Positions 39,397 through 62,700 of a stretch of DNA of 64,000 bases are shown here, in pieces. The stretch comes from Cyanophora paradoxa CCMP329. Its lineage: Eukaryota; Plantae; Glaucophyta. A program made the position numbers and the translations under genes. The notes under the pieces were generated by a model, which saw only the letters and a list, made by a program, of their open reading frames with translations, was not told the DNA's origin and searched no databases. Position 1 is the first letter of the stretch; every line of letters begins with the position of its first letter. The DNA is taken from positions 41,909 to 105,908 of the forward strand of contig QPMI01000011.1 in the NCBI GenBank assembly GCA_004431415.1, in the 5' to 3' direction.

Positions 39397-41985
39397 ATGA
39401 TCATGAACGCGGAATCGAGCGACGTCGACGGCGACGCATATGGCGCCCCGCGCTGGAACGACGATGCACCTTTCGAGCGCACGCATCACTCTGTATACCA
39501 GGTGCGCTTCCCCCGCGCATTATGACATCCTGATCGGCGCGGCGCCGGCGCCGGCCGCGGCCGCGGGCACGGGCGCGCCACTCGAGCTCCGAATTCGCGC
39601 AAGCCCGTCCTTAATGTGCGCTATCGCAGGGATACAATCTGTTGGTCGCGGCATCTGGCACGAATTCGGGGCCCTCGCGCGACTGGCTGCGCGCTCTCGC
39701 CCTCCTTCGCACTGTCGGCCTCCTCCAGCTCTCCGCGCTCGTTCTCTGGCTCCCTGGCTGCATCTTCTGCGACGACTCGCAGTCGAACATCTTCCTTTTC
39801 TTCCTCCAGCTCCGCCCGCGTTTCGCCTCCTGGGGTGGCTTCCTCGCCCTATTCTGGACGTCAATCGCCCTCCTCGCAGTCCTTATCGTCTGCCTGTTCC
39901 TGTTCTTCTGCAAGCGCAAGACTGGTCACAGTTCGTGCTGCGCCCCGCTGACTGGGCTCTTCTTCCGCTGATCCCCGCGCCGGCGCCGGCGATTTGCGCG
40001 CGCAGAGACCTTGACGGCCGCCGTGCGCTGGTGGGTCGCGCTGCTGCTCGTGCTGGAGGCGCCCGCGCTGCTCGGCAGCTTTGGGCCCGCCATCGCGTGC
40101 CGCGGGGGCGCGCTGGAGGAGTTCCCGTCCGTCGACTGCCTGTCGCACAAGCATCTCGTGATCGCAGTCTTTGCGATCGCGGCCGTCGTCGCCGTCGCGT
40201 GCCTCTCCGCGGCGCCAGTGCTGCTCTTCGACCCGCGGCCCTCCGCGCACGCCGCCCTCGCCCGCTCCACGCCGCGCCCCGACCTCGCCCTCGCCGCCGT
40301 CAAGACCTTCCTCCTCCTCCTCGCCCTCGTGCCCCCTTGTCCTCCCCCTTTCTCCCCCCTTCTCGCGCACTCACGCCGCGCGCTCTCCCGCAGTTCTCTC
40401 GGGACCGGGGCGCCCTCCGGGGCGGCTTTCAGGTCGCCGGCGCCGCCCTCTACGCGGTGGTCTTCTACAGATGGTGCCGCCCCGGCCCCTGCGTCCGCGG
40501 CCGCCCGCCCTGCGCGCGCCCCGGCCTCTCGACCTCGCCTGCGCAGGCTGCCGCCGCTGCGGACGGGGGCTCTGCTGTGGGAAGCGTACCTCTCCCTGCT
40601 GCCCCTCCCCTGCGCGGCGCTGGGCTCCGCCTTCTGCGCCGCGCCGGGCTGCGCCGCCCCCGCCGCCTTCTGGCCCGCCCTCGCCGGCGTCGTCGTCCTG
40701 ACCGCGCCCGCCTCCGCGCTCCTCGTCCGCGCCCGCGCGGCGGCGGCGGCGGCGGCGGCGCGCAGCGAGCGCCTCTCTTTCCTCTGCGGCGACGCCTGCC
40801 ACGACGTGGCCACCCGCATGGCGCTCGCAGAAGAGCCGGACCACTCCGCCGCCAGCCGCTCCCTCGCCGCGCGCCTGGCGCCCCTCGGCCTCGGGGCGCG
40901 CCCCCGGGACGGGCCGCCGGCGCCCCCGCTCGCCGCCGCCCTGGAGTTCGCTCGGGCGGCCTGCGAGCGGCGCCCGCGCTCGGCGTTCCTGCACGCCCGC
41001 CTCGCAGCGGACCTCTACGATGTGCCCGCCCTGGCCCCCCTCTCCATGGTCCGGCCCTTGTGTCCCCGCGCGCCCCCCGCCTCTCCCTTTGCTTACGCTC
41101 GGGTCCAGGCCATGGCCCGCAAAGCCCGTCGGGTGCGGGGCGCGCGCCTATAGCTAGCCTCAGGCGGGCGGTTGCGCCGCGCGCGCCCCCTCCAAGTCCC
41201 TTAGGCGCCGCCGCAGATGCCCGCCGGCTTCGCAACCTCTTACCAGGCGCGTGCGCGCGTCCCGTGCGCCTGCCGTTGCGTTGGCTCACTCACGCCGGGC
41301 GCTCAGGCGTTCTTCCTTGAGCACCAGCGGGCTGTGGAGCGGGAGGAGTGGGGGGAAGAGGGCCACGACGTCACCGAGTGCGCCCCGGCCCCTTTAGCTC
41401 CAGCGTCCGATCGCGAGCCGCTGAGCGGCGGCCGCGCCGACCCCGCAGGCTGCTGGCCGCCATCGGGCAGGAGGAGCGGAGCGCCTCCCTCCGCGCAGCC
41501 GCCTTCTGGACCGTCGTCCGCACCGCGGAGCGCACTGCCGACAAAGGTGCGCATGTGTGCACGCGCGCGCGCCATTCTTCTCGGGAGCTGCTCTTCTTTC
41601 CCACGCGGCGGACATGCGCAGACGCGCGGGCCGGGCAGCGCACCGAGCTCTCCGTGCGCGCTCTGGCGGCCGAGGAGTCCAAGCAGCGCGCCCTCCGGTG
41701 CCCCCTCTGCCATCCGGCCCTAGGCCTCCGCCCCCCGGCCCGACTCGACCGACCGCGCCGCAGGATGTACGGGCAGCTGCTGCAGACGCACCCGCACTCG
41801 GTCCGCGTGCTCCGCCGCTTCGCCGCCTTCCAGGCCGCCCACCTCTTCGGTGCTTTCGAACGCTGGGGTCCGAGCTTGCAATTAAAGGGCGGCTCGCGCA
41901 CACGCAGACATCGAAGGGGCGATTCGGACGGAGGAGCAGGCTGACCAGCTCGTCGAGCAGCACCGTGTCGACCGCCTGCACGCCG
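39397..41985 (+). CDS. TmcB/TmcC-like multi-TM + TPR-like protein, 5' part; interrupted in an intron by the viral element
   Basis: N-terminal TM exons, then ALEFARAACERRPRSAFLHARLA, MYGQLLQTHPHSVRVLRRFAAFQ and DIEGAIRTEEQADQLVE, resembling the Y..LL..YP.S..VLR.YA.F / AD.LEE repeat of Tmc-type proteins. No stop before the donor GTGCGC at ~41985. Confidence 0.55.
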
Positions 41986-42042
41986 TGCGCGCCCCCGGCC
42001 GCGGCCCGGCCTCGCCCCGCCCCGCCCGGTCCGGATCCGGTG

Positions 42043-42313
42043 AGTAAAATGCGGAGTTTTAACCCTCGGCTTATCTTAATTGATTTTGTTGATATATCTC
42101 GTATATTCTATTTCAATCAATCGATAATCTGTGTATATCTTATCGAATATTCAATTATTTCGATTATTTTGTATTCTTTTCGATATTTTATCTTAAATTT
42201 CTCTTATTTTCCGATTAGTCTTACTGAGTCTATCGATAATCTGTATATATTTCCGAATAATATAACTGAATCTCAATTAGATCTTGCCTCTGGTTAAAAC
42301 TCCGCATTTTACT
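42043..42313. repeat. Terminal 271-bp quasi-palindrome with perfect 22-bp inverted arms
   Basis: AGTAAAATGCGGAGTTTTAACC (42043-42064) is the exact reverse complement of GGTTAAAACTCCGCATTTTACT (42292-42313); inner patches pair on the same diagonal. Confidence 0.95.
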
Positions 42314-42571
42314 ATGTGTGATTGGTCTAAAAGTTAATTGATTTAATCGATATTATATTCATGTACTTTCTCGATTAAATTTAATTAAATTTAATTCATT
42401 TAATCGGAAATATATCGCTAAACTCGATTAAGATCCATAAAAGATTCATTTGTTAAATAAAACAAATCGATCTCTTATTGAATTCAATCGTAATTATACA
42501 TGAAATTGATATGTTATTATCATGTTTTAATGATTCTAAGGGGGGACCCTTAGGATTTTTGAAATAATTGG

Positions 42572-43032
42572 GTGTGACAGGTGTGACAGGTCTATCCCAA
42601 ACTTTTGATAGTTCATTTTTATGTTATAGAAAAGTTTGGGATAGACCTGTCACACCTGTCACACAAACCATATTCAGTAAGGATCTCTTTTAATGTTAAA
42701 ATTTCAGTGTTAGTTGGTGTAGTTGATTCACAAAATGCATCCTGTCACACCTGTCACACAAACCATATTCAGTAAGGATCTCTTTTATAATGAAAAACTC
42801 AGTAACAATAAGTAAGAAGTTTATCTATGTAATTCTACTTGAATAAACAAATGAAATAATCGAGTGTGACAGGTGTGACAGGTCCATCCCAAACTTTTGA
42901 GAGTTCATTTTTATGCTATAGAAAAGTTTGGGATAGACCTGTCACACCTGTCACACAAACCATATTCAGTAAGGACCTCATATATTGTGAAAATCTCAGT
43001 GTTAGTTGGTGTAGTTGATTCAAAAAATGCAT
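42572..43032. repeat. Iteron palindromes: 35-bp arms (GTGTGACAG)2-GTCTATCCCAAACTTTT around a 23-nt AT loop; full copies 42572-42664 and 42864-42956, half copy 42741-42759
   Basis: Arms 42572-42606 and 42630-42664 are perfectly complementary; the flanking AAACCATATTCAGTAAGGA is repeated three times. Confidence 0.95.
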
Positions 43033-43067
43033 TTATACTCTGATTCATTGTTATTTCCTGTGAAATT

Positions 43068-43496
43068 TGAGTCAACTCAACCCACTTAGTCAACCCTCCC
43101 ATTGAATTCGTAACAAAATCCATATACTTTTACTACTTTTACGATTAATATGAGTCAACCTTGAGTCCACTTAAATATAAATATAATATAATAGGGGGAA
43201 TGAAGGGGAGATGCTTATAAACATATGATTTATTGAGCCTATGATACTTACATAGTCACGCTGGTCTCGTTAAGAGGATTCCGAATCTGGTTTTATCTTT
43301 GTAAGATGATGCGTTGGTGAAGAGATACATGCATTTTAGTGTTTTGTGTGGGATTTCATGTTATGACGTCATAATGACGATGCATATGTATATGATATAT
43401 ATGACATACCACGTGACTCGGGAGATCATGACGATCACGGCGATATGTTCATTGTCGTGATGTATATGTATATATATGCGGTGCAATCTGATTGGC
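43068..43496. promoter_or_regulatory. Cluster of canonical eukaryotic TF motifs (AP-1 x2, CRE, E/G-box, inverted CCAAT)
   Basis: TGAGTCA at 43068 and 43151; TTATGACGTCATAA 43361-43374; CACGTG 43410-43415; CTGATTGGC 43488-43496. Function inferred only. Confidence 0.4.
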
Positions 43497-43502
43497 GGAT
43501 TG

Positions 43503-43625
43503 ATAATTCGTGGTAGAAACCACTAGCTTAATTATAATTCGTGGTAGAAACCACTAACTTAATTATAATTTGTGGTAGAAACCACTAGCTTAATTATAAT
43601 TCGTGGTAGAAACCACTAACTTAAT
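43503..43625. repeat. 4 x 31-bp tandem repeat, each unit with a GTGGT-AGAA-ACCAC mini-hairpin
   Basis: ATAATT(C/T)GTGGTAGAAACCACTA(G/A)CTTAATT read directly four times. Confidence 0.95.
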
Positions 43626-43643
43626 AACAAAGAGATTTAAACT

Positions 43644-43727
43644 GTTATTTTATAGGTTATTTTATAGGTTATTTTATATGTTATTTTATATGTTATTTTA
43701 TATGTTATTTAATATGTTATTTAATAT
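43644..43727. repeat. 7 x 12-bp tandem repeat GTTATTT(T/A)ATA(G/T)
   Basis: Read directly; the unit changes stepwise along the array. Confidence 0.9.
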
Positions 43728-43974
43728 GTTATGGATAATGTTGGGGGTATAGTGTATCTGTTATGGATAATGTTGATAAGTTTCGTCGAAGTTTCGGTAT
43801 TTCGATTGTCGGCATCTTCAAACGCTCGTATTTCATTACCAGATTACGAACTCGCAACGTTCTGCATAGCGTTGTGAAGCGCTTGATAAGCTCTACAAGA
43901 CTATGTGTATATCATGGGCATATATGTATATGACACATACATATATTTGGAAAAACGAGTTTTCGGCTATGAAA

Positions 43975-45360
43975 CTAGCTAGTTTTGGTCCTTTCTCTTA
44001 GTGTTCTTTGAGGTTTAGGGGCTGTATATGACTCCTTATTAGTCTGAAAGTCATTATACCATCTCTGGCTATTTACCTCAGAAAGTTTCTGTGTCCCTGC
44101 TATAGTGAGCTTTTTGAGTTCCCTATTAACCTTGCCAGTCTTCTCCTTTCTAGCCTGTATCAAAGGCTTATCTGGGACTTCATTAGCAGCTTCTATGCCT
44201 TCTCTCCTTATAGCAGCATCAACCCTGGCTTCCTCCTTGGCTTGCTCTAAGGCATCCACTGTAGGGGTTTCTAGATATTCAACTGCATTCACAGGCAACA
44301 GCTCATGGAAAGCAAACCTGTTATCTATGATCTCACCAGTGGGACTCCTTAGCTTAAACTTAAAGCCTTCCCTACTATCAACAGTGTAAACCATCCTAGA
44401 CCAATTGTTACCCTGTTTAGCAAAGGGGTTCTTCTCAACTTTCACTCTAACAAACATGCCAGGCTGCATGGTATCAAGATAAGCTATTGATTTCTTAAAT
44501 CTCTCATCTTCTAATCCCACTATATACCTATAATGCTCCTCTGTAGTTTCGCCTGGTTTCATCTTAGTAGCTGAGTGGACTGTATTATTGTAATTATACT
44601 CAATATCACCTAACACATCAAAGAATCTAGCTGTGTTATTAGCTATGCAGTAGTTTGTGATCAGTCTCTTAATCTGCTTGTTAAAGGCTTCAATTCGACC
44701 TTGGCTTCTGTGGTCTGCAGTTCCACTCACTTGGTGTTCTATGTATTTACTAGATAAATACTCCTGGAATATTCGATTTTGGAACTCACTCCCAGCATCT
44801 GATTGAACCTTTACTATGGGTCTTGCTACTCTCATCTCAAGCTGTTTAAATGCAGCCAATGTAGTGAGAGCTGATTTATCCCTTATAGGTATGATATACC
44901 CAGTTCTCAGTGTTGATTCCATTGCAGTCATAAATGTATCATAGCCATTGTTTTGTTTCTTATAAGCTGGGAAAAAGAGCAAATCAATCACATAGGTATC
45001 AAGGGGTTGCCTAATTGGGACCATGGGATCTCTCTTCCTAGATATAGCAGGTGCATTGATCTGAACTACCTCTTGCTTTTTATAGAACTCTTGCAACTGC
45101 TTATAGGATTCATCTGGTAACTCAGCCCTCATAGCTTGAAGCCCTTTGTAACCAGTTCTCACATCATAGAATCTCTTGGCAATCTTGCTGGTTTCTTTCA
45201 CTGCAATTGCAACTGGAATCTCTACTGGGACAAGTTCTTTCATCTCTGATTTTTTAACAATTCGAGATTCTCCCTTTTCCTCCTTTGGAACTGTGATAGG
45301 CAGTAGGTTACCTTGCAGTTGCTCAGTGGTTCTCCTAACTATTCTTCCAGTTGCTGGCAT
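43975..45360 (-). CDS. Retroviral-type (rve, DDE) integrase, Polinton type; intact
   Basis: YVIDL (D), VQSDAGSEF (D), GRIEAFNKQIK (E), YNNTVHSATKMKP, and C-terminal GMFVRV...NWSRMVYTV; 461 aa uninterrupted. Confidence 0.95.
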   Translation of the reverse strand: MPATGRIVRRTTEQLQGNLLPITVPKEEKGESRIVKKSEMKELVPVEIPVAIAVKETSKIAKRFYDVRTGYKGLQAMRAELPDESYKQLQEFYKKQEVVQINAPAISRKRDPMVPIRQPLDTYVIDLLFFPAYKKQNNGYDTFMTAMESTLRTGYIIPIRDKSALTTLAAFKQLEMRVARPIVKVQSDAGSEFQNRIFQEYLSSKYIEHQVSGTADHRSQGRIEAFNKQIKRLITNYCIANNTARFFDVLGDIEYNYNNTVHSATKMKPGETTEEHYRYIVGLEDERFKKSIAYLDTMQPGMFVRVKVEKNPFAKQGNNWSRMVYTVDSREGFKFKLRSPTGEIIDNRFAFHELLPVNAVEYLETPTVDALEQAKEEARVDAAIRREGIEAANEVPDKPLIQARKEKTGKVNRELKKLTIAGTQKLSEVNSQRWYNDFQTNKESYTAPKPQRTLRERTKTS

Positions 45361-45363
45361 CTC

Positions 45364-48300
45364 TTAATTAAAAGGAACAGAATTAATACCATCTGGTAAG
45401 ATGTATCTCTTTGCATCAAAGCAGTTCAGGGCAACCCTTCTACTCACAGTGTCTATTATTGTGTGATCTGCCCTTCTCTTCTGCTTGGCAGTCACAGTCT
45501 TGCTTATACCTGCAAATAAACACTGCTTAAAATCATTAAATTGGAGTTCCTCAGTTGAAGTCCCAGAGAGCTTACTTCTCTCAATCTCAGCAGTTCTGAA
45601 ACTGTAAACTTTGGCTCTCAGACCCACATATTCCAATATAGCAGAACCTGGCATCTCATTTTTGTATGATCTGCCCTTCTCTTCTGCTTGGCAGTCACAG
45701 TCTTGCTTATACCTGCAAATAAACACTGCTTAAAATCATTAAATTGGAGTTCCTCAGTTGAAGTCCCAGAGAGCTTACTTCTCTCAATCTCAGCAGTTCT
45801 GAAACTGTAAACTTTGGCTCTCAGACCCACATATTCCAATATAGCAGAACCTGGCATCTCATTTTTGTATTTACCTGGGGTCATTCTGTTAGATCCCCCT
45901 AGGTCCAAGGCATAAGATATATTCTCTATATCTTTTTGTAGGGTCTTAGATTCGATATATAGACAAAAGGAGTCAGTATCATGGAATAGTAACTTTGCTT
46001 TTGTCCATTGGGACCTTACAGTATCATAGAAGAACTTGTAGTTATGCAGTTTGGCTGCATCCAGAACATAAGCCCCAATAGCAACTGGCTTATCTAGCTT
46101 CACATGCTTTGTGTAAAACTCAAAGGCAACTGCTTTTTCGTTTATGGGACTTGTTGATTTCACCAATGGGGAGGCTGCATATTTCATAAACAGTTTCTCA
46201 CTGTTTGCAATCTTAACCACAGATCTACCTCTGCAAGATTCAATGCATTTCCCATAGATTGAGTTATTCATGAGTTTATAGAAATCAGCCTCGAATTTAT
46301 TCACTGCTTTCCTTCTCATCTCAGTATTCAGCTCAATGTAGGGTTTCATTACAGGAGCCACAGTAAATGATAGGACCCTGTGAACCTTCTTTAGTTTCAC
46401 CCCTTTGTCCAACAGATACTGTAGAAGAGGCTCAGAAATCACATAGTTGGTCACAGAACCAAAGGTTGCAGTTAGCTTAGGGGTCTTATCAAGCTCTTCT
46501 CCTGAGAGATCTAATAGGCTCTTTTGATATTGTGATAATTCTGCATATTCTACTATTTTCTTGTTAATAATTAGGGGGAAATCACTGTGGTCTAGATATA
46601 GCCTAATTGGGTAATCCAGATCAACTTCCAGGAAACTGGATCTGTTATCTTGTGGGTTGAATTCGGTCTCCCATCTAAAATCACCAACTGGGATTGGCTG
46701 ACTCAAACAGTAGCCATACAAGTTGTTAGCATCAAACAGCATTATATGGGAGTTCTCACCATCAGCCTCAGCATACCTACAAGGCATTGTTGCAAAGCCA
46801 CCCCTGATTCCCCTCTCAACAAATTCGTATTGCTCTACATCACTTATAAGCTCTATTTTTGCCTTGGTGGTCCTAAGCATAGCATCCCAAGATAACCCAG
46901 GTGCAGATACATAATGAACTGGGTCCAATCCATATACTGAGTGTGAAAGCCTTCTGAAAGCCTGGAATTTGCTCATTAACTCATCTACATCAGCAGCCCC
47001 AAAGTCCATAAAATTACTTGCATCAATGAACTTGTAAAGACCCCATTGCAATGAAAGGTATTGATCAAAGTTTTTCGAAAGGATTTCGATTCGCTTTTTA
47101 TCACCCATGCCTGCTATTTTTCTGAAAATGAATGTCCCACAGTCATCCATTTGGTCAACAACCACTGCTACTTTTGTTTGCTTTGAGATTCTCCTATGGA
47201 GATTGCAGTTTCTGCATGCAGGTGCAATGTAATTACCTGTGTGGTGATCATGATCCTGCATTTGAAGTTTTCCTTGGTGAACCTCTCACTGCAAAGGTAA
47301 CAGTGTTTGGTAGCTCTGTAAATAGCCTTTTGCTCATCTGTGAGTTCATTCATGGGAATATTGGTGAACAGGAAATCGATTAGCTCTCTTGCTTTGGACT
47401 CCAAGCATTCAAACAGACCTCCCATTGGATCCTGACCCTCAAATCGAAACTCCTGAACATCTGCCCCAGTGACTATTCTAATGTTGACTGCTGAGACTTC
47501 CCTCTTGGATTTCGATGCATCAATGGGGATGCTTCTATGTTCAATCTTGCAGTAAACCACAACAGGAAGCCAGACAGTTTTCCTGAGGTTTTTCAGTCCA
47601 AACTCTATTGTGGTGTCAGGCTTAGGGGTGATTCCCTTTGAGAGTCTCCAATCAATGCATCTGTTTGAGTCCACATGAGCAGTCAGTTTAGCCTCAGACC
47701 TGAATCGAGATAAGCATGTATCACAGTAGTGTAACTTTTGATCCTTGGTTTTATCAAGGGCAACTCTGAGAAGTCTTGAAAGGGACATGATTGTAATATA
47801 GTGACCATTCCCTTCATCATCATGAATGAGCATTAGATTAATCTTTTGCTTTCTGCCTGGGTTGCTGGATTGATGTAGGGGATATATAACATCTCGATCC
47901 ATTCCAAATATGTTTATGCTGATGCCTCCATTTTGAGATTCGAATTTATCAATGATTTCAGCATCACAGGCAACAGGGAATGAGATGTTATCGAAATTGA
48001 GAGCCAGAGGATTGTATATGGTCGGTGAGTATTTCCATTTGCGATATTGTGTAAGCTCACTTCTCTTGTGGGAATTTACATCTTTCCTATGGATCCATGC
48101 CAAAATGGCATTTTCAAAGCAAGAATCATCAATATTTCGAATATTCACTGTAGCTCTCTTGGCTGCAATTGATTCTGGTGTTTTAACATAGCAGCCACCA
48201 GTTGGGGCATAACTCATAATAGCAACTCTTAGCATTTCGATTCTCTCCAATCGATAGCTATCAACAACATTCATCTGTTCCTGACACATTTGGGCTGCTT

Positions 48301-48811
48301 TATTCAGCTCAGTTCGAATATTTCTCGATTTGGTTAATACAAAATAATCGCTGTAAATGTATTTCGATATCCAAACCTGCGGATTGCTGACTTTAACGAA
48401 CTTGCAGATAAACGACAAGCGAACTTTGATTGCCCTGAATTGATCCAGACTATCTCTTAAACGTTTTGGTAGAGAGGTTGCAATTCTATCTAAATATTCA
48501 ATCACATCTACCACAACTTCCCTTCTGGCTCTGTATGTGAGCCAGCGATATAATTCATTCATGGCTGTTCCATCTTCTGCCTCTGGTTCTATTTGCCTCA
48601 GGCGATCGAGTTCATCAAGAGTCTCAACTTTATCATAGAGGTTATTGGCTTTTCTGGTTAATTTGGACAAAGTGGGTCTCCCCCTTGAAATAAATCCGAT
48701 TTCCCGGTCATATTCAGCCTCTGTGATTTCATGGGCTGCATACAGTGTTCCCAGTAATCCCATGAGTTCCCATTTCTTCTCTTTAATGAGTCTGTTGCTA
48801 ATTCGGGGCAT
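45364..48811 (-). CDS. Protein-primed-type family B DNA polymerase with N-terminal TP/vOTU-like region and EndoVII insert; split by a 1-nt deletion (~47255) and a 203-bp 3' duplication
   Basis: Polymerase motifs DANNLYG, KLMNNSIYGK, HDTDS, GKYKNE, GLRAKVYS and FDAKRY; LDPVHYVSAPGLSWDAML; CYLC...DHDHHTG...CRNCN; NIRNIDDSCF...GHY. Likely start MPRISNR at 48811. Confidence 0.92.
45464..45870. repeat. Perfect tandem duplication, period 203 bp, in the pPolB 3' end
   Basis: TGATCTGCCCTTCTC starts at 45464 and 45667; the peptide YKNEMPGSAILE...RRADHT appears in both ORF pieces. Confidence 0.95.
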
Positions 48812-49751: not shown

Positions 49752-52078
49752 ATGAACGCCAAACAGACTAAATCGCTCAAATCGCTCGCTAACTGGCTCA
49801 GATCTGATGAGGAACTGTCCAAAAACATGATTATCCCAGTGAAACCTGACAGCAAAGACCCTGTTTTCAAGCATAAGGGAGGTGCATGGTCCTGGGAAAA
49901 GTATGAGGAAGCGCTGGCAACTAATCAGTATGTATCTTGGGGCATTCTGCTCTCAGACAACATGATGGTTATTGACTTTGATGATGAGGAGGACTTTGAG
50001 AAATTCCGGGATATGTTTCCTGATGACTTTGATGCCAATCAGCCCATGGCAAAAACTAAAAAAGGCTATCATGTCTACTTTAAACGACCTGAGGAGTTCA
50101 ATAAACTCAAAATTACCGATAAGGCTCCTGGCTTTAAAGGCTTTGAGAAGGTTGACCTGAAAACAATCACTGGAACTGGAACTTCTGGACTGATCAATGT
50201 GTGTCCCAGTGTGAACAAGGCTTGGGTAATCTCCCCATGGGATGATACCTGTGATTTCAATGAGCCTACTGATGACTTCAAAAAGTGGATAATAGATAAC
50301 TACATCTATAAGAGTGAGTATACTGCTAATGCTACCTCACATGATGAACTGGAAAACAATATTATCAAAGAGCTGGTGGATATGGGATTTATGCATCCCA
50401 ATATAATCTCTAAAACTGAACTTGGCTTTAACTTTGATGCTGCTAACAAGGGACTCAATTGCCCATGCTGCAATGGTTCACATGAATCGAATAACTGGTA
50501 TGTTATGAAAGCTAAAGGAGATGATAACAAATACATTGTGTCAAGCTACAGTGGAAATTGCAAAAAACGATTCATCTGCATTGGAATGCAATCTGATATC
50601 TTCAATCTTATAGATAAATCCGCTGGTTCTGGTGGCGCTCATTATGATGTGAGTTTAGTATGCAAAGAGGTTCTTAAACATACATGGAGATACTCCAAAA
50701 AGTCATGGTTCAAACTCAATACTGATACTGGGATTTGGGAGCATGATGACACAAACCTAAAGATTTACCTAGATATAAGCCGTCTTGTTGTCCCCAATAC
50801 CTTGGAAGGGCTGTGCATTATAGTCAAAGAGCTTTAAAGGATGAGGAAAACAAAGCAGCTTTCGAAGAAAGATCCAAAACATTGATGACCATTGCCAAAA
50901 ATCTTAAACAATCAGGATTTCGCAAATCCCTTCTGACTGACTTGGTCCCACTGCTGAATGATGATGAATTCTTTGAGAAGATTGACACAGTTCCATATGT
51001 GATTGGATTCGAAAATGGTGTATTTGATCTGACCACTATGACTTTCAGAAAGGGTAAACTGGAAGATATGGTGAGCAAGACTGTGGGTTATGACTATACT
51101 GAAAATGTAGACCCCAAGAAAATAGAGCATCTCAATCAGATTTATAAAGAGATTGTGGATGATCCAGCAGAGCGAAAGTATCTTCTGGCATCCATTGCAA
51201 TTGCCCTTAGTGGATCAACTAAATCCCAGAAGTTCTATATGTGGACTGGTGCTGGTGCTAATGGTAAATCACTTGTTCAGGAATACTGCAAACAGATATC
51301 TGGTCGCTATTACAGCCCTCTCGAAATATCCTATTGGACTAAGCCTAAAAAGAACTCATCAGAGGCTACTCCTGAACTTGCCAAACTCCTTGGAAAGCGA
51401 CTTGTATTCAGTAATGAGGCTGAAGATGGTGATAAACTGCAGATCTCCAAGATTAAGGAGGTCACAGGTGGAAATGAAATGACTGTGAGAGCCTTGTTCA
51501 AAGACCCAGTTATCCTTACCCCAATGTTTCAGGTCTACATTACAACTAATGACAATTTGACTATAAATAAACCAGACTTTGCAATTCAAAGAAGACTTTC
51601 CTATCAGAGATTCAATAATATATTCAGAGAGAAGCCAGAAGCTGGTCAAAAGAAAGCTGACCCAACTCTGTTCACACTTCTACACAATGATGATGAGTAT
51701 AAGATGGCTCACATGAAGATATTACTGGATATGTGGAAGAACAAAGAGGTTGAAGAGATCTTAAGAAGTCCCCCTCAATCGATTATTGAACAGGGAATTA
51801 ACTTTATAGCTGAAAATGATAAGATTGGTGAATGGCTTCGAGATAATTTCGAGGTTACACATAATGCTAACGACTTTGTTTCCAGTGATATCATTTACAA
51901 ATCATACAAAAGTGTTGATGATAAAGTTGAATGTGTATCTGTTATGAAAAGAGTAAGGGAGATCTTCAATGTTAAATCAGAAAGAAAACGAGTTAATGGT
52001 ATTCTTGCCAGAGGATATATTGGGATTCGAAAGATAACAAGGGTTCAGGAAGACAATGAAGATGATGCCGAATATTAA
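49752..52078 (+). CDS. Prim-Pol (AEP) primase - Zn finger - D5-like SF3 helicase fusion; one frameshift at ~50796
   Basis: VIDFD and TKKGYHVYF (AEP motifs); CPCC...H...C; IGFENGVFDL (D5_N); Walker A GAGANGKS; LVFSNE; IKEVTGG; TNDNL...AIQRR. Adding one A at ~50796 joins both ORFs. Confidence 0.9.
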
Positions 52079-52119: not shown

Positions 52120-52240
52120 CCTTACTGAAAATGGTTTGTGTGACAGGTGTGACAGGTCCATCCCAAGGAAAGCCCTGGTGAAAAGTTGATTTTCAAAATC
52201 GATGGGATAGACCTGTCACACCTGTCACACCTGTCACACC
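52120..52240. repeat. Internal copy of the iteron palindrome right after the helicase stop (candidate origin)
   Basis: (GTGTGACAG)2GTCCATCCCA ... TGGGATAGA(CCTGTCACA)3 with a different spacer; CCTTACTGAAAATGGTTT is the near reverse complement of the terminal flank. Confidence 0.9.
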
Positions 52241-53903: not shown

Positions 53904-54686
53904 TTATAAACCGCGTTTATATCGCATCAATTTATTGCTATGGACTTGGCTTTTCACTTCTTTAGGGGCTTCCTCTTTTTCTGGTGGTTTCAGTTCATCT
54001 TCTTTCTTCTTGGGCTTCCTGTGGAAGTGAGGAAAATCGAAATCTCCAACTAAATCGGCTTTATCAACATAGTAGCCCACATTATACTTGAAAGATGTAT
54101 AAACAAGGAACTGGTATGAGTGGACATACTCTTCAAACAGTTTATAGAAATCTTCTTTTCGAGGAAATGTCGAAAACTCCTCTGCAAATGCTTCCAGCTC
54201 TTTTTGATTGCTTGCACAAACCATAATTACTATATCACTATTGCAGCGAATTACACTTGCAACCTTTCGTAATTTCTGAGAGATAGTTATTATTGATATA
54301 TTCACATGTCTGCCACGAACATAAAGCATTCCAACTGTTTTATCTCGACTGAGATCCAGCTGGTCATTTTCTATCATATCCTCTAAAATCACCAGCATAT
54401 GGTTAAGTTCTTCTCCTTTCTCCCTTTTTGCCTCTCTTTCTTTTATAATTTTCGACATGTATTGGGGATCCCATGCACCCAGTTGAACAGTAGCAGCTTT
54501 GTCCCAGAAATGTGAGAATGAGGTAGCGGATATAATAAGGGTTGTATCAATCTTTTTGGCATCATGCAGCTGTTTCAAATAATATTTTACGGCTTCAGTT
54601 TTTCCGCATCCACTTTTACCTAGTATGAGTAGTCTGAAAGGGGGTTCTATCATTTCACCAGCATTAAATTCTTCCAGATCTTGCAT
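53904..54686 (-). CDS. A32-like (FtsK/HerA) DNA-packaging ATPase
   Basis: LLILGKSGCGKT (Walker A), LVILEDM (Walker B), RGRHVNISIITISQ and IRCNSD; likely start MQDLEEF at 54686. Confidence 0.93.
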   Translation of the reverse strand: MQDLEEFNAGEMIEPPFRLLILGKSGCGKTEAVKYYLKQLHDAKKIDTTLIISATSFSHFWDKAATVQLGAWDPQYMSKIIKEREAKREKGEELNHMLVILEDMIENDQLDLSRDKTVGMLYVRGRHVNISIITISQKLRKVASVIRCNSDIVIMVCASNQKELEAFAEEFSTFPRKEDFYKLFEEYVHSYQFLVYTSFKYNVGYYVDKADLVGDFDFPHFHRKPKKKEDELKPPEKEEAPKEVKSQVHSNKLMRYKRGL

Positions 54687-56103
54687 TGTTGTATATCTTT
54701 CTAAATAAGTACAGATAAAAATAATGCAGAGAGACTGAATTAATTCTGCGTAAACCATCTTTGTCGACAATAAGGAAACTATGCATGAGAGCGCGAACAT
54801 TAACATCAATTGTCTTATCTGAAGGCATGTAGAGGGTGAGGAATGAAGATGAGGAATTTGTCAGGTCAACAAATCCACTTTGAGCAATATTTCGAATTGC
54901 CTTTTCTCCATCAAGGCAGAATGGGAGTCCTGAAAGGACATAGCGATCAGCAACCTTATCCATGTTAGAGCATTTGAAGGCATCAGCAATTAGCTCAGCA
55001 CCTTTGAGTAGGGAAATTGGCTCAGTGGCAAAAAGTCGCTGTCCATTTATTTCAGTTGTGAATGTGATGTCTTTGGAGTTGGCATAGGTCTTAAGAACAC
55101 TGTGGGAGCCATTGGATTTGTCAACAGTTTCATGATCACGAACTGAAACAAGCAGAGCATATACAAGACCTGAGATTTGAGAGAGGTTAATTCGATTGGG
55201 TTGGGCATTGCCCTTGGCAGGGAAAGCACTAGCATCTACAAATCCAATATCAAGGGAGGGAATAGCCATGCCAGTTGTCTTAACCTTTTCAATGACAGTA
55301 GCGAAAAGCTCATCAGAAACATTAATAGCATGCATGTAAAGGCGAGGAGAAGTAATAGAAATAACAGGAGTTGTTGCACCAAGACTGAAAGTTGTGATAT
55401 TTTGACCAACATGGGCAAGTGTGGCATTAGCAGTATCACCAAGACCATCATCTTCTGTCTTATCAGCAACTGTCCCACCAACAACAGGGAGAGAGCGACC
55501 ACCATAGGAAGTTTCAACATAACCCTTTCCAGCATCCTTAAACCAAACAGTAACAACCATTTCACCAGATAAAGCACCAAGGGGAAGGTAGTGATTTAGC
55601 CAAGGCACAGGGATTTCAACAAAGAATGAGCCACCAAGGCGGTTGGTTCCATGAGCAGGGATGCCATGAACCATGCCCATTGATCGCTTCTTTTTAGCTA
55701 GTTGATCCTCCGAATAATAGACCAGGGGGAAATGAGCAAGGAAATCAGATGGAATATGGTAGGTGTAAGATCCATAGGTAATTTCAAGTCGCTGAACTAA
55801 AGCACCAACTGGGCGAGTGTATCCATTGCGAACTAGGTCAGTATCACCAGCAAACGTGATGGCTGGAAGGTCGAAAGCAAGTTCGAGTTTTCCACAGAAA
55901 TTGTAGCGAGGTAGCTTGAAGGAAATGCGATTTCCAACATTATTCTCAAAAGTATTGCTGGGATTCACAACAACTAGAACTGGCTTAGATTTGGATTCGA
56001 GACCAAGCATAAGGGAGTTATCCAGGAAAAAGGCTTTCGCCTCTTCTGGGGTTGTTAGGGCTTCTTTCAGCGAAAGTCTTTGAAGAGTGGAAGTGATATC
56101 CAT
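54664..56103 (-). CDS. Double jelly-roll major capsid protein (true stop probably near 54740)
   Basis: About 455-480 aa, beta-rich: GNRISFKLPR..CGKLELAFDLPAI, VGALVQRLEITYGS, FFVEIPVPW...YLPL, PRLYMHAINVS and VRALMHSFLIV. Sits between penton and ATPase; start MDITSTL 56103. Confidence 0.85.
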   Translation of the reverse strand: MDITSTLQRLSLKEALTTPEEAKAFFLDNSLMLGLESKSKPVLVVVNPSNTFENNVGNRISFKLPRYNFCGKLELAFDLPAITFAGDTDLVRNGYTRPVGALVQRLEITYGSYTYHIPSDFLAHFPLVYYSEDQLAKKKRSMGMVHGIPAHGTNRLGGSFFVEIPVPWLNHYLPLGALSGEMVVTVWFKDAGKGYVETSYGGRSLPVVGGTVADKTEDDGLGDTANATLAHVGQNITTFSLGATTPVISITSPRLYMHAINVSDELFATVIEKVKTTGMAIPSLDIGFVDASAFPAKGNAQPNRINLSQISGLVYALLVSVRDHETVDKSNGSHSVLKTYANSKDITFTTEINGQRLFATEPISLLKGAELIADAFKCSNMDKVADRYVLSGLPFCLDGEKAIRNIAQSGFVDLTNSSSSFLTLYMPSDKTIDVNVRALMHSFLIVDKDGLRRINSVSLHYFYLYLFRKIYNNARSGRI

Positions 56104-56155
56104 TATATTCTCTTTTATTATACTGCAACATAAAAATCTACCAATGATCCTTAAT

Positions 56156-57164
56156 TTATGCGAAGTTTGTAATAACTGGATAGGAAGGGTGAAGCTGTGA
56201 CATTCGCATCTTGAAGTATTCATAAACTGGGTCCCCAGCTGGCTCATCACCATAGCGAATTTCAAAGGTAAGATGAACAGGTTGACCCTCAAAATCAATT
56301 GGTTCATTAATAGCATTTACAATATCAACCGAGAAAGTGGATAATCCAACCTTTTATTATAGTATTTGTAAAGTGGGTGAGCTTCTGTTGAATTGTAAAC
56401 AACATGCTCACCATAGTCTTTATCAGGGACCACTATTTTGTGAAAGTAACCAGTCAGAAGACCATCCCCACATTGCACCAGATCACCCAGCTCCTTTACT
56501 CTCACAAACAAAACACTGTCCCTGGTCTTCTCAGGCTCAAAAGAAGATATAATGCCATTCACGCGACCACCAGTAAAGATTCCATCAGTGAGAGCATCAT
56601 AGACCTGTGATTGGATTGGGGAGTTACCATATCTTCCAGGATCAAGACCCAGCAGTCTAGCGGAACTCAACAGCTTTTGGATTGTTTGTTGGCTTGGGTT
56701 CACAGCTACTGAGAAAGCCAAGTACAATGGTACTGCTGAGTGGAATATAATTCGTTTCAGTGATTCATCCCATTTGCAGCGAATGGATGGTTGGGGATTT
56801 CTGCCTTCGAATTTAGAGTTAATTACATTCACCAGTTGCTGGTGGCTTTGGATGGGGGTGTTTCGACTTATAATGAATTGTTTCCATTGTTCATAGTCAG
56901 CAGCTGGGCGAACTGTTGGAATTCCTGAGCTTCCAGCTCCAGGAGTTTGTTCAGAATAATAAATGCTAAATGCATTGTCAACTGTCACATCTCCTGCTTT
57001 GGTTTCACCACTCACCATAGGGATACTGTTATAAATTCGGCTGAGACCAGTCTCACAGCCCTCACATTCTCATAACTACTGGGGAGTCTAGCCACAAAGC
57101 TTGATGTGGGACCATCACCAGAGATTGTATTAAATGAGCTAACCTCGATGTAATCCACAGGCAT
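56156..57164 (-). CDS. Minor capsid (penton) protein 1; frameshifts near 57030 and 56335
   Basis: Reconstructed N-terminus MPVDYIEVSS...SFVARLPSSYENVRAVRLVSAEF; LFVRVKEL; C-terminus VDIVNAINEPIDFEGQPVHLTFEI, typical single-jelly-roll penton ends. Confidence 0.75.
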
Positions 57165-57193: not shown

Positions 57194-58124
57194 ATGAACC
57201 GGCTCGTTAATATTGATAGCAGGGATAGAAGCCAAGGACAAAATGAAAACTCTTACAGGGTCACCCTCACAACTCCAGTAGAGAGACCAAGGGAATGTAG
57301 GGTTCTCTATGCAGAGATTCCAAACAGTATCTATAACAGTGTGGGAACTGATCATCTAACAGTTCAGTTTAATTACCAAGATGGTTCATATAACCAAGTG
57401 ATCACACAACAAGTGTATCCCTTCCCAGTGGCTACATCAATCAGGGTCATTTTGGGGTCACACACCCTTATAATTATGGGCTGAACTATTCAAGCTTCCA
57501 AACTATTGCAGGCAAAACAGTAGCTTTTGAGTTCAAGATATTCTACAACCCAACAACCTATAAAGTGGAGTTTTACAGTAACCATGAGTTTCGTTTTATT
57601 GCAAGCAACCAGAGAATAGGAAAGCTTTTGGGTGTAAGTTCTACTGAATACACCACTGGGTATTATAGCACTCCTCCTGTTGGTGGATCTCCCTATCGAC
57701 CTGAGAACCTTTTAAAGTATGATGGCAAACCTATTACACCTGATCACCCAGCATGGGGAATCACCTTCTCAGGACCCAGACTCTCCTCTAAGCCCTTGCA
57801 ATATTATTTTGACAGCAGGAAGATGTCTGATATGAATGCTGAGCAGTATCTGTACATGCATATTAAAGAGCTGTCCCCTTTGCCAGCAGACACAATATAA
57901 TTCCAAAATCGCAACCACAAAACCAGGGAGCTATCCTTAGATTGCAATTGAGTAAAGATATAGGGGGCTATGTTTACCATAGTGGTGAACATGCAGAATT
58001 TATTCAAATCAATGACAGAAACCTGGTGATAAGGGAACTCACTGTGGAGTTTAAAGATTACTTTGGTGAACTGATTGATATGAATGGAATCGATAATTCT
58101 TTTCAGTTGGAGTTTATCGAATAA
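57194..58124 (+). CDS. Minor capsid (penton) protein 2; in three frameshifted pieces
   Basis: MNRLVNIDSRDR...YRVTL...VLYAEIPNSIYN; IGKLLGV; YLYMHIKEL; ELTVEFKDYFGELIDMNGIDNSFQLEF. Confidence 0.8.
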
Positions 58125-59670
58125 AGGCACCTGTAAAGTCAACTCTCATTGTGGGAGCATTCACATACACAAGGGGATAAATGCGAATATATCTTATTCT
58201 CAGAGAATAACCTATGTAAAAAGCATCCTTGATGCTGAGAGGGAACCCACTCAATAGAGCCACATCACCAGAGTTGTGAGCATTGTTAATGTTCTCACAG
58301 ACATATATTTTGTTTTGCCCATCTGATCGAATAAAAGACCAGTTGATCCCATCAGTGGATGTTGCCACATTGAAAGTCTTAATAAAAGCATTGGTGTCCC
58401 CTGATCCATAGGCAATCACAGAGGAGAGTTCAAAAGTATATGGAAAAGCAACTTGAAGGTATTCAGTGGGGGTTTCCCATATCTGTTCAGGAGCATAGGC
58501 TCCAGCTTCCCAGCCAAATGCTGAAGGTCTAGCCATGAAAGGCTCTTTACCTGTCACAGAGGATGAGGCAGTAAAGGCATCATCTGCAAGCTGATACCAA
58601 TTGGCATCCAAAGGAGGTGATGTAGTGAGAGTGGATGAAATGTAAGCCTTTGAAGGGTTCTTTAGTTCATAGTTTGCTACTAGAAGGCTGCAAAGCTTAT
58701 TGATCATATCATTGTTTGCTGCAATGTATGTTTCAGTGAATGCAAGCATGTCTGGGATCTTAGATGTGTCATCCAGGGAGCTTACTATATGATTTGGAAG
58801 AGGGACTGATAACCTATAGTATCTCCCATAATCCTGATCATAGTTGTAGGGTAAAAGCTCCTCCATTTTATCAAGGGCAGAAAGCTCACTTGCAGCCATG
58901 AGCATGTTAATCAATGGGCTTCCATCTGTTGAGGCAATCCATGAGAGAATACCCCAGCTGTTTACAGTCTCATAAGCATAACCCACATAATCAGACTCTA
59001 AATGTGGGTCTACCTCACCACAAGAGATGCTTATTACTATAATATCATCATCATCACTGTAAATCTTCTTTGCATGGCTGTAACCACACACACTGGGATT
59101 ATTGTTTCCCGAAATGGCACCATCAATAAGACAGACATATACTCCCCGATTGAAATCAACAATGCTTACAGGAGAGAAATATGTAGGAGCAGCAGAAGTA
59201 GCCCTAGCAGCAATCTTACAAGGCATAAAGTTGTAATTGTTGTCATTTGTGATAAATATTGGTTTCATATTCTGAGTATCAAAGGATGTGATCACAATGT
59301 CCTTAAGGGAATCCTGTATTAGTGATTCACCAGTAACTGAATTGATTGCAGTCTCCAAGGGTCCCACATCATACTTTGTGTTAAATAGGGCATTTTCAAT
59401 GATATTTCGAGGATTTGCGAAAATCAAGGGCAGTTGAGTTAGGTAAATATTGTGTAAATCGTTTGCTGTCAGTTTAGGTTCACCTGGTTTATCAGGATGC
59501 CTGATGTTTAACCCAATAGCAATGATCCCACCAGTGGAAGTTCCACTCACAAGATCCACAAGATCGATTATTCTCCTGCCAGTTCGATTTTCGATTTCTT
59601 TGAGCAGCCTGGTTATGATAATGCCCCTTGCACCTCCCCCTGACAAACTGAGAACTACTTTGAGAGGCAT
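58114..59670 (-). CDS. Patatin-like phospholipase fused to a C-terminal discoidin (F5/8 type C) domain; intact
   Basis: LSLSGGGARG, GTSTGG, ATSAAPTYF and IDGA (patatin); EYLQVAF...FIKTFNVATSTDGINW...RYIRIYP...TMRVDFTG (FA58C). Confidence 0.9.
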   Translation of the reverse strand: MPLKVVLSLSGGGARGIIITRLLKEIENRTGRRIIDLVDLVSGTSTGGIIAIGLNIRHPDKPGEPKLTANDLHNIYLTQLPLIFANPRNIIENALFNTKYDVGPLETAINSVTGESLIQDSLKDIVITSFDTQNMKPIFITNDNNYNFMPCKIAARATSAAPTYFSPVSIVDFNRGVYVCLIDGAISGNNNPSVCGYSHAKKIYSDDDDIIVISISCGEVDPHLESDYVGYAYETVNSWGILSWIASTDGSPLINMLMAASELSALDKMEELLPYNYDQDYGRYYRLSVPLPNHIVSSLDDTSKIPDMLAFTETYIAANNDMINKLCSLLVANYELKNPSKAYISSTLTTSPPLDANWYQLADDAFTASSSVTGKEPFMARPSAFGWEAGAYAPEQIWETPTEYLQVAFPYTFELSSVIAYGSGDTNAFIKTFNVATSTDGINWSFIRSDGQNKIYVCENINNAHNSGDVALLSGFPLSIKDAFYIGYSLRIRYIRIYPLVYVNAPTMRVDFTGAFIR

Positions 59671-59713: not shown

Positions 59714-62700
59714 ATGAGCTTCAATTACCCACCCAATCTAGAAACCATTCAAGATGATAATGCAAGCAGCACCAAGCATGTGAACTTTGATAATATTAAA
59801 GTAAAGGGTTCAGTTTCAATTGACCACAGCTCTGATAATTCATCAAAGACTCAATCAAGGGAGCATGCTTTATCTGTGAATCAAACCGATCCAGATAAAG
59901 AGGATGTCAGTGTTGCTTTTAGTTTGGGTAATGTGAAAGCAAACCAAGTGGCAGAGATCAAAGCCACCAGAAGGAGACCTAGGAAACTGAAAACCAGTGG
60001 CACTCACCCAGATATACCTTCCAGGTTCGATAGTGGTCGATTGATTTTCAATGTTCAAGATGAGCAGGGCAAACAGAACACAGCTTTACGAATTTACAAT
60101 GAGGGCAGCACTGCAAAAGCTGAGGTCCCCAAGTATTGCAAGTGGGTCCATTGCCAATACAAATCAGGTCTCCTACACAAATGATGTCTACCCCAAGGAT
60201 ATTACATATGACTTTGCAAGAAATGAGCCTTTTGGTTCTTTACTCCAAAAGATGTCCATCAAAAAAAGCCATCAATTACAATCAACAGTAGCCCAGTCAA
60301 CCAGTAGCAATCCATTTGCATCCTGATTTAGTCGAAATGGATAGGCACCTTTTGCCTTTGTATAGCAATGTGAAAGACCTTGGAATTCGAACCAGGCAAT
60401 GGCGAAATATCCATGGCAGCAATGTGTATGCAAATGGAGAGAAGCTTGTTAGTGAGAAAACTCTAAGGGAAATCATTGAGCATTATGGTCCCAATGGACC
60501 TACTGTCCCATTCCCTATTCCATTTCCCAATGGACCACCCGATCTAACACCAAAGAAGCAGCCTGGAAGAGAATACACAGCAACTGAAGATGTAGCCTTT
60601 GGGCAGCATATTGTGAGTTGGGAGCAAGTTCGCAATAAACCTATAATTGAACCCAGAAAGCAAATAGATGAGCAGTATTTACCTCCTGAAGTCGATATAT
60701 TAGAGCTTGATGAATATCAATTCGTTCCAGATGAGGAAGAGTATTTACCAGATGGTTTCGACCCACAAGAGTATGAATATGATCAATATGACCCCAATGA
60801 GGAGGAAATATTACCAGATGGCTTAGACCCACAAGAGTATGAGTATGAGCAGAACTATGAACCCCATGAGGAGTATTTAGCAGATGGACATGATCCACAA
60901 GAGTATGAGTATGAGCAGAATTATGAACCACATGAGGAGTATTTAGCAGATGGTCATGATCCCCCAGCTGTTGACTATGAGCAACCCCATGACCCCCATG
61001 AGGAACTGTTACCAGATGGTTTGCAACCTGAGGTTTTCGAGATCTTCCCTGACTGGGAGCAAATAAACAATAAACCAGCGAGATATCCTCCAGAGGACCA
61101 CAATCATGACTGGGATGAGATCTTAGGCAAACCACAGAAATACCCACCAGAAGACCACAGGCATGATTGGGGTGATATTGATGGGATTCCAGATAAGTTT
61201 GCAGCAAGCAACCATGAACACACCTGGGATGAGATCAATGACCAACCAGAATTTGCAAAAGTTGAGCCTCTTGCTACTCTGGGAGTTTCTCTTTACCAGA
61301 CTTGCAATGTCCCTGAAAGGATCTTTTTGAATCACCACTATGTTCATGTGAATGGGACACTTGCGAATTCAGCTATGAGAGGACCACTTCATATTAGGAC
61401 ATTACCAGGCTCTTATAATCCACCACCTGAACCAGGAGCAACCATACCAAATATCTTTGTGTCAAGCTACATGGAGGCTGACATTCCCACAGATACATTC
61501 AGAGTCCCAACAGACCCAGCAACCTACCAAAATTACAACTCTGCTATACAGGTTCATGTAGCAGATGTAAGCAGTCTAGATGGATCAAGACCAATGATAG
61601 TTTTCAGTCGAGATAAATATTCCTATATTCCCATAGTGGGAACTGCAAATGATAACTATGGAAGGGCAGAGCTTGCATGGATTAAAACAAACTATGGTGG
61701 GGTTCTGGAAGCCAATCAGAGGATGGCTGCAAAGAATATTCACAATGAGACTATTTCGAGAGTGGTCACAGAGGATTATTAGAAGAGCAAGGATATATTG
61801 ATGAAGGTGAATTAACAAACATTCTTTCTCTTTTTGTGATCAAAAATGACACAAACCTTACAGTCACAAGTAACATTTTCACCAGTAACCTTTATACAAG
61901 TAACATTTACACCAGTAATCTATGGGCAAGCAATATTTACGGAAGTAATCTAGAAGTCGACTATTTGACTGTGAATATTGCAGCAAATCTACCAAATCAT
62001 CCTACATCCAATGTAGTTTTAGGTTGGATCGACAACCACACCCACACAAAAGATGAAATAACAGATTTTGCACATGAGCAATTTATGGGAGCATATAACA
62101 AATCCACATTAACATTCCCTCCCAGTTCCCATGGGCATTTATGGGAGCAAATCGTAAATCCACCATTAACTTTTCCACCTGATCCACACAGTCATGATTA
62201 TTCCCAGATCACCAACTGCAATCACAGACACCCTTGGAGTGAAATCGATCAACAACCAGTATTTGCACTGTTGAATGCGATTGGAAATGCGATTGGAAAT
62301 GTTTTCAATGGAGTACACTTTACCAATCCAGTAATACACCTGAAAGCTTTTTTGAATGATCATTATGTTAGTCTCAATGGGACTTTTACAGGTCAAACAG
62401 GAACCCCAATGGTGGGAACTCTTGCAGTAAGATTACCCAGGGATCCAATTGTTAATGGAGTTTATGATGGCATTTTAATGTGGAGTTAATGATACTTTCC
62501 CAGTATCTATGTAACGAATTATCACCCAGGAGAAACAGGACAAGTAGCCAATTTTTCAGCAGCAATTCAAGTTAATGTAACAGATCAAGACCATATGATG
62601 GAGCAAGACCTAAAATCGTGTTACAAGGGAGAAAGGTAAACTACCTTCCAGTTGCAGGACAACCCACAGATGATCATGGTAAATGTGAGATGTCCTGGAT

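Follow-up and report, generated by a model that had tools for sequence, protein, structure and literature searches.

In the terminal resolution of parvoviruses and AAV, as in the fold-back patching of Streptomyces ends, a stem arm, a loop, a second stem arm and unique inner sequence follow one another, and the end primes or templates its own completion; some parvovirus left ends keep one orientation. The ends of ASFV and chloroviruses are likened, together with those of poxviruses, as AT-rich and incompletely paired terminal inverted structures, and the target-site duplication of Polintons measures 6 bp. For bocavirus, junction resolution is stated to be used at the left end. Poxvirus telomeres, in the sections of PMC8956199 devoted to them, have covalently closed strands and exist in two isomeric forms; a resolvase acting at a conserved resolution site produces them. 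The closest described systems are the integrated, rve-bearing small DNA viruses of the protist Halocafeteria: palindromes at the tips of the terminal repeats were reported for four virophage subtypes and one subtype of Polinton-like virus (PLV), they adjoin the target-site duplication, and hairpin priming was proposed as a model (10.64898/2026.07.28.741278). In the passages of that work on palindromes, the figured palindrome has 52 nt, the screen accepted gaps of up to 10 nt, palindromes are found preferentially in elements other than those with a protein-primed family B polymerase (pPolB), and variation in end length is not mentioned; the replication of the ends and their hand-over to the integrase are described there as unknown for most PLVs.

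We studied a 271-nt unit (42043–42313) in a window of 64,000 nt, the whole stretch of DNA that was analysed. We regard it as a longer, interrupted variant of the Halocafeteria-type terminal palindrome, and the idea of hairpin priming is already in print. Like the palindromes described there, it lies at the tip of an rve-bearing integrated virus, next to host DNA; unlike them, it consists of 22–28-bp arms around a half-decayed loop of 227 nt and is accompanied by both pPolB and PrimPol-D5. It occurs with at least two end lengths. The contrast with Polinton-like ends that had been drawn from the sequence is weaker than claimed, since terminal palindromes and a hairpin-priming model are reported, in the parts of the Halocafeteria work cited, for PLVs and virophages. 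Among the openly accessible titles listed for the termini and palindromes of these viruses, and in the passages of the papers cited here, there was no report of a long interrupted fold-back, of flip/flop isomers or of mirrored end bases that vary; the supplementary tables of the Halocafeteria work may list longer palindromes.

The GC content of the window falls from 69% (1–42042) to 39% (42043–64000) and, on a shorter scale at the same boundary, from 73% (41500–42042) to 28% (42043–42313). This boundary coincides with the start of arm 1, and the AT-rich part from 42043 onwards is an integrated, multi-copy PLV in a GC-rich eukaryote. Its right end lies beyond the window end (64000), and there is no third copy of the arm within the window. 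As in PLVs and Maverick-type EVEs, we found an rve integrase together with a pPolB, the latter in three frames in the window copy, and a double jelly-roll capsid together with an A32 ATPase, the capsid by ESM Atlas features only. The sections of PMC10120064 and 10.64898/2026.06.19.733378 on Maverick/Polinton elements and PLVs describe the same set of an rve integrase, a pPolB with an endonuclease VII domain, A32, capsid, lipase and a drop in GC; the present element differs from those described in its NCLDV-like capsid, in having both pPolB and PrimPol-D5, in its fold-back tip and in that no cysteine protease was seen within the window. The cysteine maturation protease of the Polintoviricetes group 1 Mavericks/Gosseviruses was matched by none of the ORFs scanned, and the window covers the element in part. 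Likewise, no HUH, resolvase or telomere-resolvase match was obtained among the ORFs scanned, the right part of the element lying outside the window.

The integrase (461 aa) is encoded on the reverse strand at 43975–45360, with a Pfam rve match below the cut-off (E 1.4e-4) and 1868 relatives at E up to 1e-10. In an alignment of 42 sequences (the window protein, P0002 and a further 40 from the list of 150 relatives), which was used to fetch 23 viral loci, D126 and D188 were invariant and E224 nearly so. The polymerase follows on the same strand at 45364–48811 (Pfam DNA_pol_B_2, E 4e-14): both halves match a single 1083-aa protein (P0004), a frameshift lies near 47260, and the end of the gene carries a 203-nt tandem duplication (99%) at 45455–45860. 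An Endonuclease_7-like fragment in the polymerase region scored below the cut-off (E 0.0044), PF02945 was present on 65 of 120 polymerase relatives among those listed, and literature searches on the endonuclease VII-like domain of Polinton polymerases returned nothing. A PrimPol with a D5-like helicase is encoded on the forward strand in two overlapping frames of the window copy (49752–52078; Pfam Prim-Pol E 1.3e-5, D5_N E 3.3e-10, DUF5906 E 1.1e-8), with a change of frame near 50750–50837. The polymerase and primase-helicase genes are thus each split over more than one frame in this copy, through either mutation or assembly error.

The A32-type packaging ATPase (53904–54806, reverse strand) was identified with Pox_A32 (E 8e-14). 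The ORF at 54664–56316 (reverse strand) is a probable NCLDV-like capsid, judging from ESM Atlas features, which score 0.97 against Capsid_N/Capsid_NCLDV clusters at a recognition value under the threshold of the tool; it had no Pfam match, one relative (P0001, 59%) and a pLDDT of 35 in single-sequence AlphaFold. A patatin-like lipase with a C-terminal F5/8 domain was recovered with Pfam at 58114–59670 (reverse strand), and repetitive acidic ORFs without a Pfam match, possibly fibre-like proteins, occupy 60337–62489 (66-nt and 57-nt repeats, and a 96-nt duplication at a distance of 1018). Searches of viral contigs for related loci, with the capsid, the integrase, the capsid pair and D5 as single-protein queries, returned no relatives. 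On the host side, we noted a coiled-coil-like gene region (9204–11737) with an internal duplication at a distance of ~1985 (92–97% over 290–300 nt).

Behind the terminal unit, an iteron-like inverted repeat with 35-bp arms and a 23-nt spacer occurs twice (42572–42664 and 42864–42956) and, together with a half copy, spans 42572–42956; a third, related repeat lies directly downstream of the D5 gene (52138–52239). They are built of 9-nt repeats set as 35-bp inverted arms, and those at 42572–42956 are, by their sequence, a candidate internal origin, possibly one copied into the terminal region. The iteron pattern had 0 matches in viral contigs, and Rfam had 0 matches on 41900–44000. Further in, two tandem arrays (31-nt and 12-nt units; 43503–43742) showed low depth in four runs; other copies skip ~43446–43802, so that this stretch varies between copies.

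The unit itself opens and closes with perfect 22-bp inverted arms, arm 1 at 42043–42064 (forward strand) and arm 2 at 42292–42313 (reverse strand). The arm sequence occurs nowhere else in the window at three or fewer mismatches, and two matches were obtained in 0/100 shuffles; the arms of the original prediction stand. Searches outside the window returned 0 matches in viral contigs, 1 in metagenomes (in a bacterial gene region) and 13 in prokaryote genomes; all of these 14 lacked an inverted partner, with 6 or more mismatches or too little space for one, and we set them aside as chance. Arm 1 is the outer element end in the window copy and begins with AGT, the GC content dropping at its first base. 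Directly outside it, the six host bases CCGGTG (42037–42042) are a candidate target-site duplication whose partner is not in the window; the AG at the start fits the Polinton AG...CT end motif.

Between the arms lies a T-rich inner segment of 227 nt (42065–42291) with 108 T and 60 A on the top strand, a bias that had been noted originally. The four inner patches described there are also real, provided that their second coordinate is taken to mark where the patch ends, with coordinate sums of 84356, 84356, 84357 and 84357. The supposed excess of pyrimidine:pyrimidine mismatches did not hold: their share (58% of the mismatches) matches the 56% expected from base composition, and a diagnostic role for them is not supported. 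Folded as single-stranded DNA, the whole unit reached -35.7 kcal/mol (z -7.4; 0/200 shuffles as good). This value was rejected as proof of inner pairing, since the arms account for it: the inner 227 nt alone folded no better than shuffles (109/300 as good), and with the arms held fixed 11/300 shuffles were as good.

Symmetry of the inner segment was nonetheless apparent when it was scored by position. On the exact anti-diagonal 35 of the 112 inner positions pair, as expected by chance (534/2000 shuffles reach this number), and the gapped self-complement score was reached by 21/2000 shuffles. With one 1-nt shift allowed, a statistic chosen post hoc after the patches were known, 52 of the 112 positions pair (46%; 3/5000 shuffles). 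Two runs of at least 7 nt on the axis occurred in 2/5000 shuffles, and three mirrored CG sites (42100, 42122 and 42144 against 42254, 42234 and 42212) in 17/5000. As weak direct repetition and palindromic CG-centred motifs also mark the inner segment, we used rotation and slide controls, which keep local repeats and motifs. Among 224 rotations, one reached 52 pairs, the half-length rotation that restores the same axis, and none of 110 slides of the right half did so. Because these controls agree with the shuffles, we consider the inner symmetry real and tied to the arms. Thus, of the inner pairing originally proposed, a symmetry on the arm axis beyond chance was retained, whereas the inner fold alone was no better than shuffles.

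A largely paired, poxvirus-like hairpin, as had been suggested, was not supported: at most 46% of the inner positions pair, and a pairing probability above 0.5 was predicted at only 12 of the 112, on either strand. Of the features of flip/flop telomeres, we found the AT-rich imperfect palindrome at a genome end, and did not find a hairpin that is largely base-paired with scattered mismatches. The likeness to the poxvirus telomeres of PMC8956199 lies in an AT-rich, incompletely paired terminal inverted structure, here belonging to a virus whose packaging ATPase is of the A32 type and whose capsid is probably NCLDV-like. The differences are that the present loop is mostly not predicted to pair, that an even mixture of isomers is disfavoured, and that the end is integrated by an rve integrase.

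The inner halves are also alike as direct repeats at an offset of ~112 (3/1000 shuffles), and the inner segment, a decayed palindrome on the arm axis with this weak direct duplication, carries CG-centred motifs spaced ~20–22 nt. The motifs run on past arm 2 to 42489, within an AT-rich continuation of the terminal region (42320–42540) that shows no significant similarity to the inner halves of the unit. CpG observed/expected was 2.47 in the inner segment versus 0.29 in the viral gene region, and CpG was enriched ~2.5-fold over the terminal region 42065–42540 as a whole, which suggests putative binding motifs that have been kept. Another fold-back, with arm 2 at its centre and the inner right half facing 42314–42426, was tried and rejected as not significant (298/1000 shuffles).

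The region was present in 20 of 22 listed public runs, all of one organism and available as assembled contigs. Among the contigs listed, we compared those of four runs over 41500–44500 and those of two of them (X1 and X14) over 42012–42350. In X14, depth was 32.6 in the single-copy flank, 4824 at the start of the unit and 4971 just past arm 2, which gives a rough estimate of ~150 ends per genome and a ratio of unit to adjoining DNA of 1:1. A diverged subfamily was also recovered: record 12 of X14 (350 nt, depth 478, ~15x the single-copy flank) covers the unit from end to end together with 62 nt behind arm 2, and since it did not merge with the main family across arm 2, its sequence differs there too. 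As originally expected, sister copies carry the unit, and in two subfamilies it is linked to the adjoining terminal DNA, in the diverged one on a single contig, which confirms the unit as the viral terminus and as part of an element family.

Outside arm 1, record 12 begins with ACACAT, the reverse complement of the six bases ATGTGT directly inside arm 2 (42314–42319, forward strand), and record 1 of X1 has the same six bases. The arms are thus 28 bp long in the diverged subfamily, which in both X1 and X14 also shows a loose end before 42047. Records 10 and 11 of X14 (record 11, of the main family, at depth 4308) have six unaligned letters before 42043 that would likewise mirror 42314–42319; depth at 42036–42071 in X14 was accounted for exactly by four contigs, and judging from the graph model below most copies probably have 28-bp arms. 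The mirrored bases are not a target-site duplication, because such a duplication is a direct repeat. The window copy lacks them: host DNA is joined straight to AGT, a junction confirmed by contigs in X14 (41655–42073) and X16 (41934–42072), while a gap in the cover of X1 over this junction was counted neither for nor against it. Since the window copy has no extra bases and sister copies have six, ends of at least two lengths exist. In addition, X1 and X14 show a GC-rich loose end after 42321, so that in one or more copies host-like DNA follows arm 2-type sequence and 8 further bases; this junction may represent the six bases plus two chance matches.

Orientation was modelled with toy assembly graphs (k=31, a simple pruning rule, random flanks and no within-family variants), which approximate an assembler. 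The X14 pattern, with six outer bases and unbroken sequence past arm 2, was reproduced with 15 copies in 29/40 runs when the six-base-extended ends were fixed and unflipped, in 7/40 at 15% flips, in 2/40 at 50% flips and in 0/40 in each of three AGT-end models. In X1, by contrast, the arm 2 contig of the diverged subfamily (record 7) stops exactly 8 nt past the arm, and the corresponding pattern (six outer bases and this stop, 8 copies) appeared in 0/40 runs with no flips, 5/40 at 15%, 1/40 at 50% and 0/40 in each AGT-end model. The variant-free rows of a separate toy-graph simulation agreed with the main one. The X1 stop could also be explained by a variant at 42291 or 42322, which is outside the scope of the model. 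In these models the two runs oppose each other on a minority of flips and agree on extended ends and on the absence of an even mixture. A strand-switch joint was found in none of the contigs listed, contigs being prone to drop rare forms. Modelled in this way, a 50:50 flip/flop mixture is disfavoured and the end appears mostly fixed in orientation, which is compatible with a minority of flipped copies.

Among the 23 viral loci fetched with the integrase alignment, perfect arms of at least 18 bp around 138–347 nt were found in four (L021, L022, L035 and L036), in three of which they lie within 400 nt of the integrase gene. The closest look-alike, L035 8710–8953 (244 nt, 27-bp arms, 190-nt AT-rich interior), is 390 nt upstream of an rve gene on a PLV-like contig with a Capsid_N-like gene; its residual inner symmetry was reached by 0/500 shuffles, and it is 67% self-complementary up to a perfect tip. 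The same contig carries a dispersed family of ~55-nt hairpins between genes. In L036 (6870–7324), 74-bp inverted arms surround 263 nt at the end of the integrase gene and overlap a second palindrome of 144 nt. L036 and L017 were rejected as like cases for want of inner symmetry (439/500 and 363/500 shuffles); L018 and L021 resemble iteron arrays. Intergenic fold-backs or iteron arrays were noted at L018 4657–4840, L021 3328–3628, L022 1962–2155 and L028 5891–5967; in L018 and L028 they are flanked by the integrase gene on one side and the polymerase gene on the other. All look-alike sites are internal in their contigs and, judged by sequence, serve as leads only with respect to genome ends.

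We tentatively favour, at slightly less than an even chance, a self-priming or self-templating end: the 271-nt unit is the outer tip of a multi-copy integrated PLV, and its free 3' end would fold back on arm 2 and finish the genome end, the opened end then being integrated mostly one way. Replication would start at the iteron-like repeats 260–640 nt further in, using PrimPol-D5, and would leave a single-stranded end; the free 3' end would fold back on arm 2 and take it as template or primer; this copying would keep the arms identical and add a few bases of inner sequence, giving 0 extra bases (window copy) or 6; and integration of the opened end would follow, for the most part in a single orientation. 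The inner palindrome would be a decayed product of snap-back synthesis that now acts as an unpaired loop and offers repeated binding motifs centred on CG. As for the two junction types, they could also reflect an integrase 5' flap that is kept or replaced, six bases being the length of a Polinton duplication. We favour this reading because the inner symmetry is centred on the arm axis, because the mirrored six bases fit a 3' end extended on the sequence inside arm 2, because the X14 pattern fits fixed, six-base-extended ends, and because the arms are perfect while the loop is decayed. The mostly fixed orientation, the mostly open loop and the lack of a nicking or resolving enzyme among the ORFs scanned point the same way, and terminal palindromes with a priming model have a precedent in Halocafeteria. 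Internally primed replication that needs end completion is plausible given PrimPol-D5 and iteron-like repeats both behind the helicase gene and near the end; primase-helicases have been linked to terminal repeats as proposed origins in passages of PMC11296320. Parvoviruses, AAV and Streptomyces show the same order of a stem arm, a loop, a second stem arm and unique inner sequence; unlike in those systems, no HUH Rep or telomere-associated protein was found among the ORFs scanned, and the element is a dsDNA virus with an integrase. As for the prediction of a fold-back terminus, a structure beyond chance with sister ends that mirror the bases inside arm 2 remains, whereas poxvirus-like pairing and an even flip/flop mixture are unsupported. 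Against a fold-back end, the virus encodes pPolB, and protein priming needs no hairpin; in Halocafeteria, elements without pPolB are the preferred carriers of palindromes; stable pairing is not predicted for the inner loop; and fixed 28-bp arms, with the six bases lost in the window copy, fit the contigs equally well without any active fold-back.

This last possibility, which we consider rather unlikely, would make the unit a frozen accident or duplicated binding site: a one-time snap-back or inverted duplication of an ordinary protein-primed, integrase-inserted tip, whose 28-bp arms are maintained through gene conversion or for their use as binding sites, with no hairpin in use and the six bases lost here. 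It agrees with the pPolB, with an inner part that is decayed and folds no better than shuffles, with CG-centred motifs that continue beyond arm 2 and with fixed orientation as the best fit to X14, and the Halocafeteria authors offer accidental annealing as an alternative in the text cited (10.64898/2026.07.28.741278). It does not readily explain arms perfect over 22–28 bp around a loop that is 46% paired, in a unit kept in a diverged subfamily; perfect arms around a decayed loop call for selection or for repeated copying between arms 227 nt apart. Covalently closed hairpin ends that are nicked and copied out before integration, as the original prediction held, with the nick some six bases into the stem and hairpin transfer yielding flip/flop isomers, are less probable still. 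The sister layout (six-base mirror, arm, loop, arm, inner sequence) is what a stem nick and copy-out would be expected to leave, the X1 stop 8 nt past arm 2 is better reproduced at 15% flips (5/40) than without flips (0/40), and some parvovirus left ends that keep one orientation offer a parallel. Opposed to this are the unbroken X14 subfamily contig (2/40 at 50% and 7/40 at 15% flips versus 29/40 without), the variant that could account for the X1 stop, the lack of a strand-switch joint among the contigs listed, even if contigs drop rare forms, the lack of an HUH, resolvase or telomere-resolvase match in the ORFs scanned to the left of the window end, and a loop far less paired than the poxvirus hairpins described in part in PMC8956199. 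The endonuclease VII-like fragment of the polymerase might be a candidate branch nuclease, but since PF02945 is found on 65 of 120 listed pPolB relatives it is not special to this element and is no argument for hairpins. Doubtful, too, is a pPolB-encoding, integrating PLV in which a nick six bases within the stem opens the closed hairpin ends, which are copied out before the rve integrase acts, a minority of the genomic copies being flipped isomers; if true, it would unite end replication of the poxvirus or parvovirus type with integration of the retroviral type in a single virus, and the ~150 genomic ends would preserve the position of the nick.

Far less probable are two readings that deny the unit its place as a genome end. 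An independent 271-bp MITE sitting at the virus tip would suit the short terminal inverted repeats, the AT-rich non-coding interior and the size, and is largely refuted: dispersed solo copies outnumbering the element were not seen, the depth at the unit start in X14 being close to that of the adjoining DNA (4824 vs 4971), and the diverged subfamily holds the unit and the adjoining DNA on one contig. Nor is there a MITE-type direct target-site duplication, as the six flanking bases are CCGGTG and ATGTGT in the window copy and are mirrored, not duplicated, in sister copies. It is just as improbable that most units lie between two inverted genome ends, at a circle or dimer junction, or are an assembly artefact: the inner-type six bases on both sides of the unit in one contig would fit, whereas a 1:2 depth of unit to adjoining DNA is predicted against the ~1:1 seen, and the host junction and unit were covered in 4/4 runs compared, with host-junction contigs in X14 and X16.

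Long interrupted fold-backs such as this one would be missed by palindrome screens with a 10-nt gap limit, and, as the four of 23 loci with perfect arms illustrate, may be under-counted. With ~150 ends per genome in X14, two or more subfamilies and ends of two or more lengths, the virus family of the window offers material on how the ends of such viruses are replicated.
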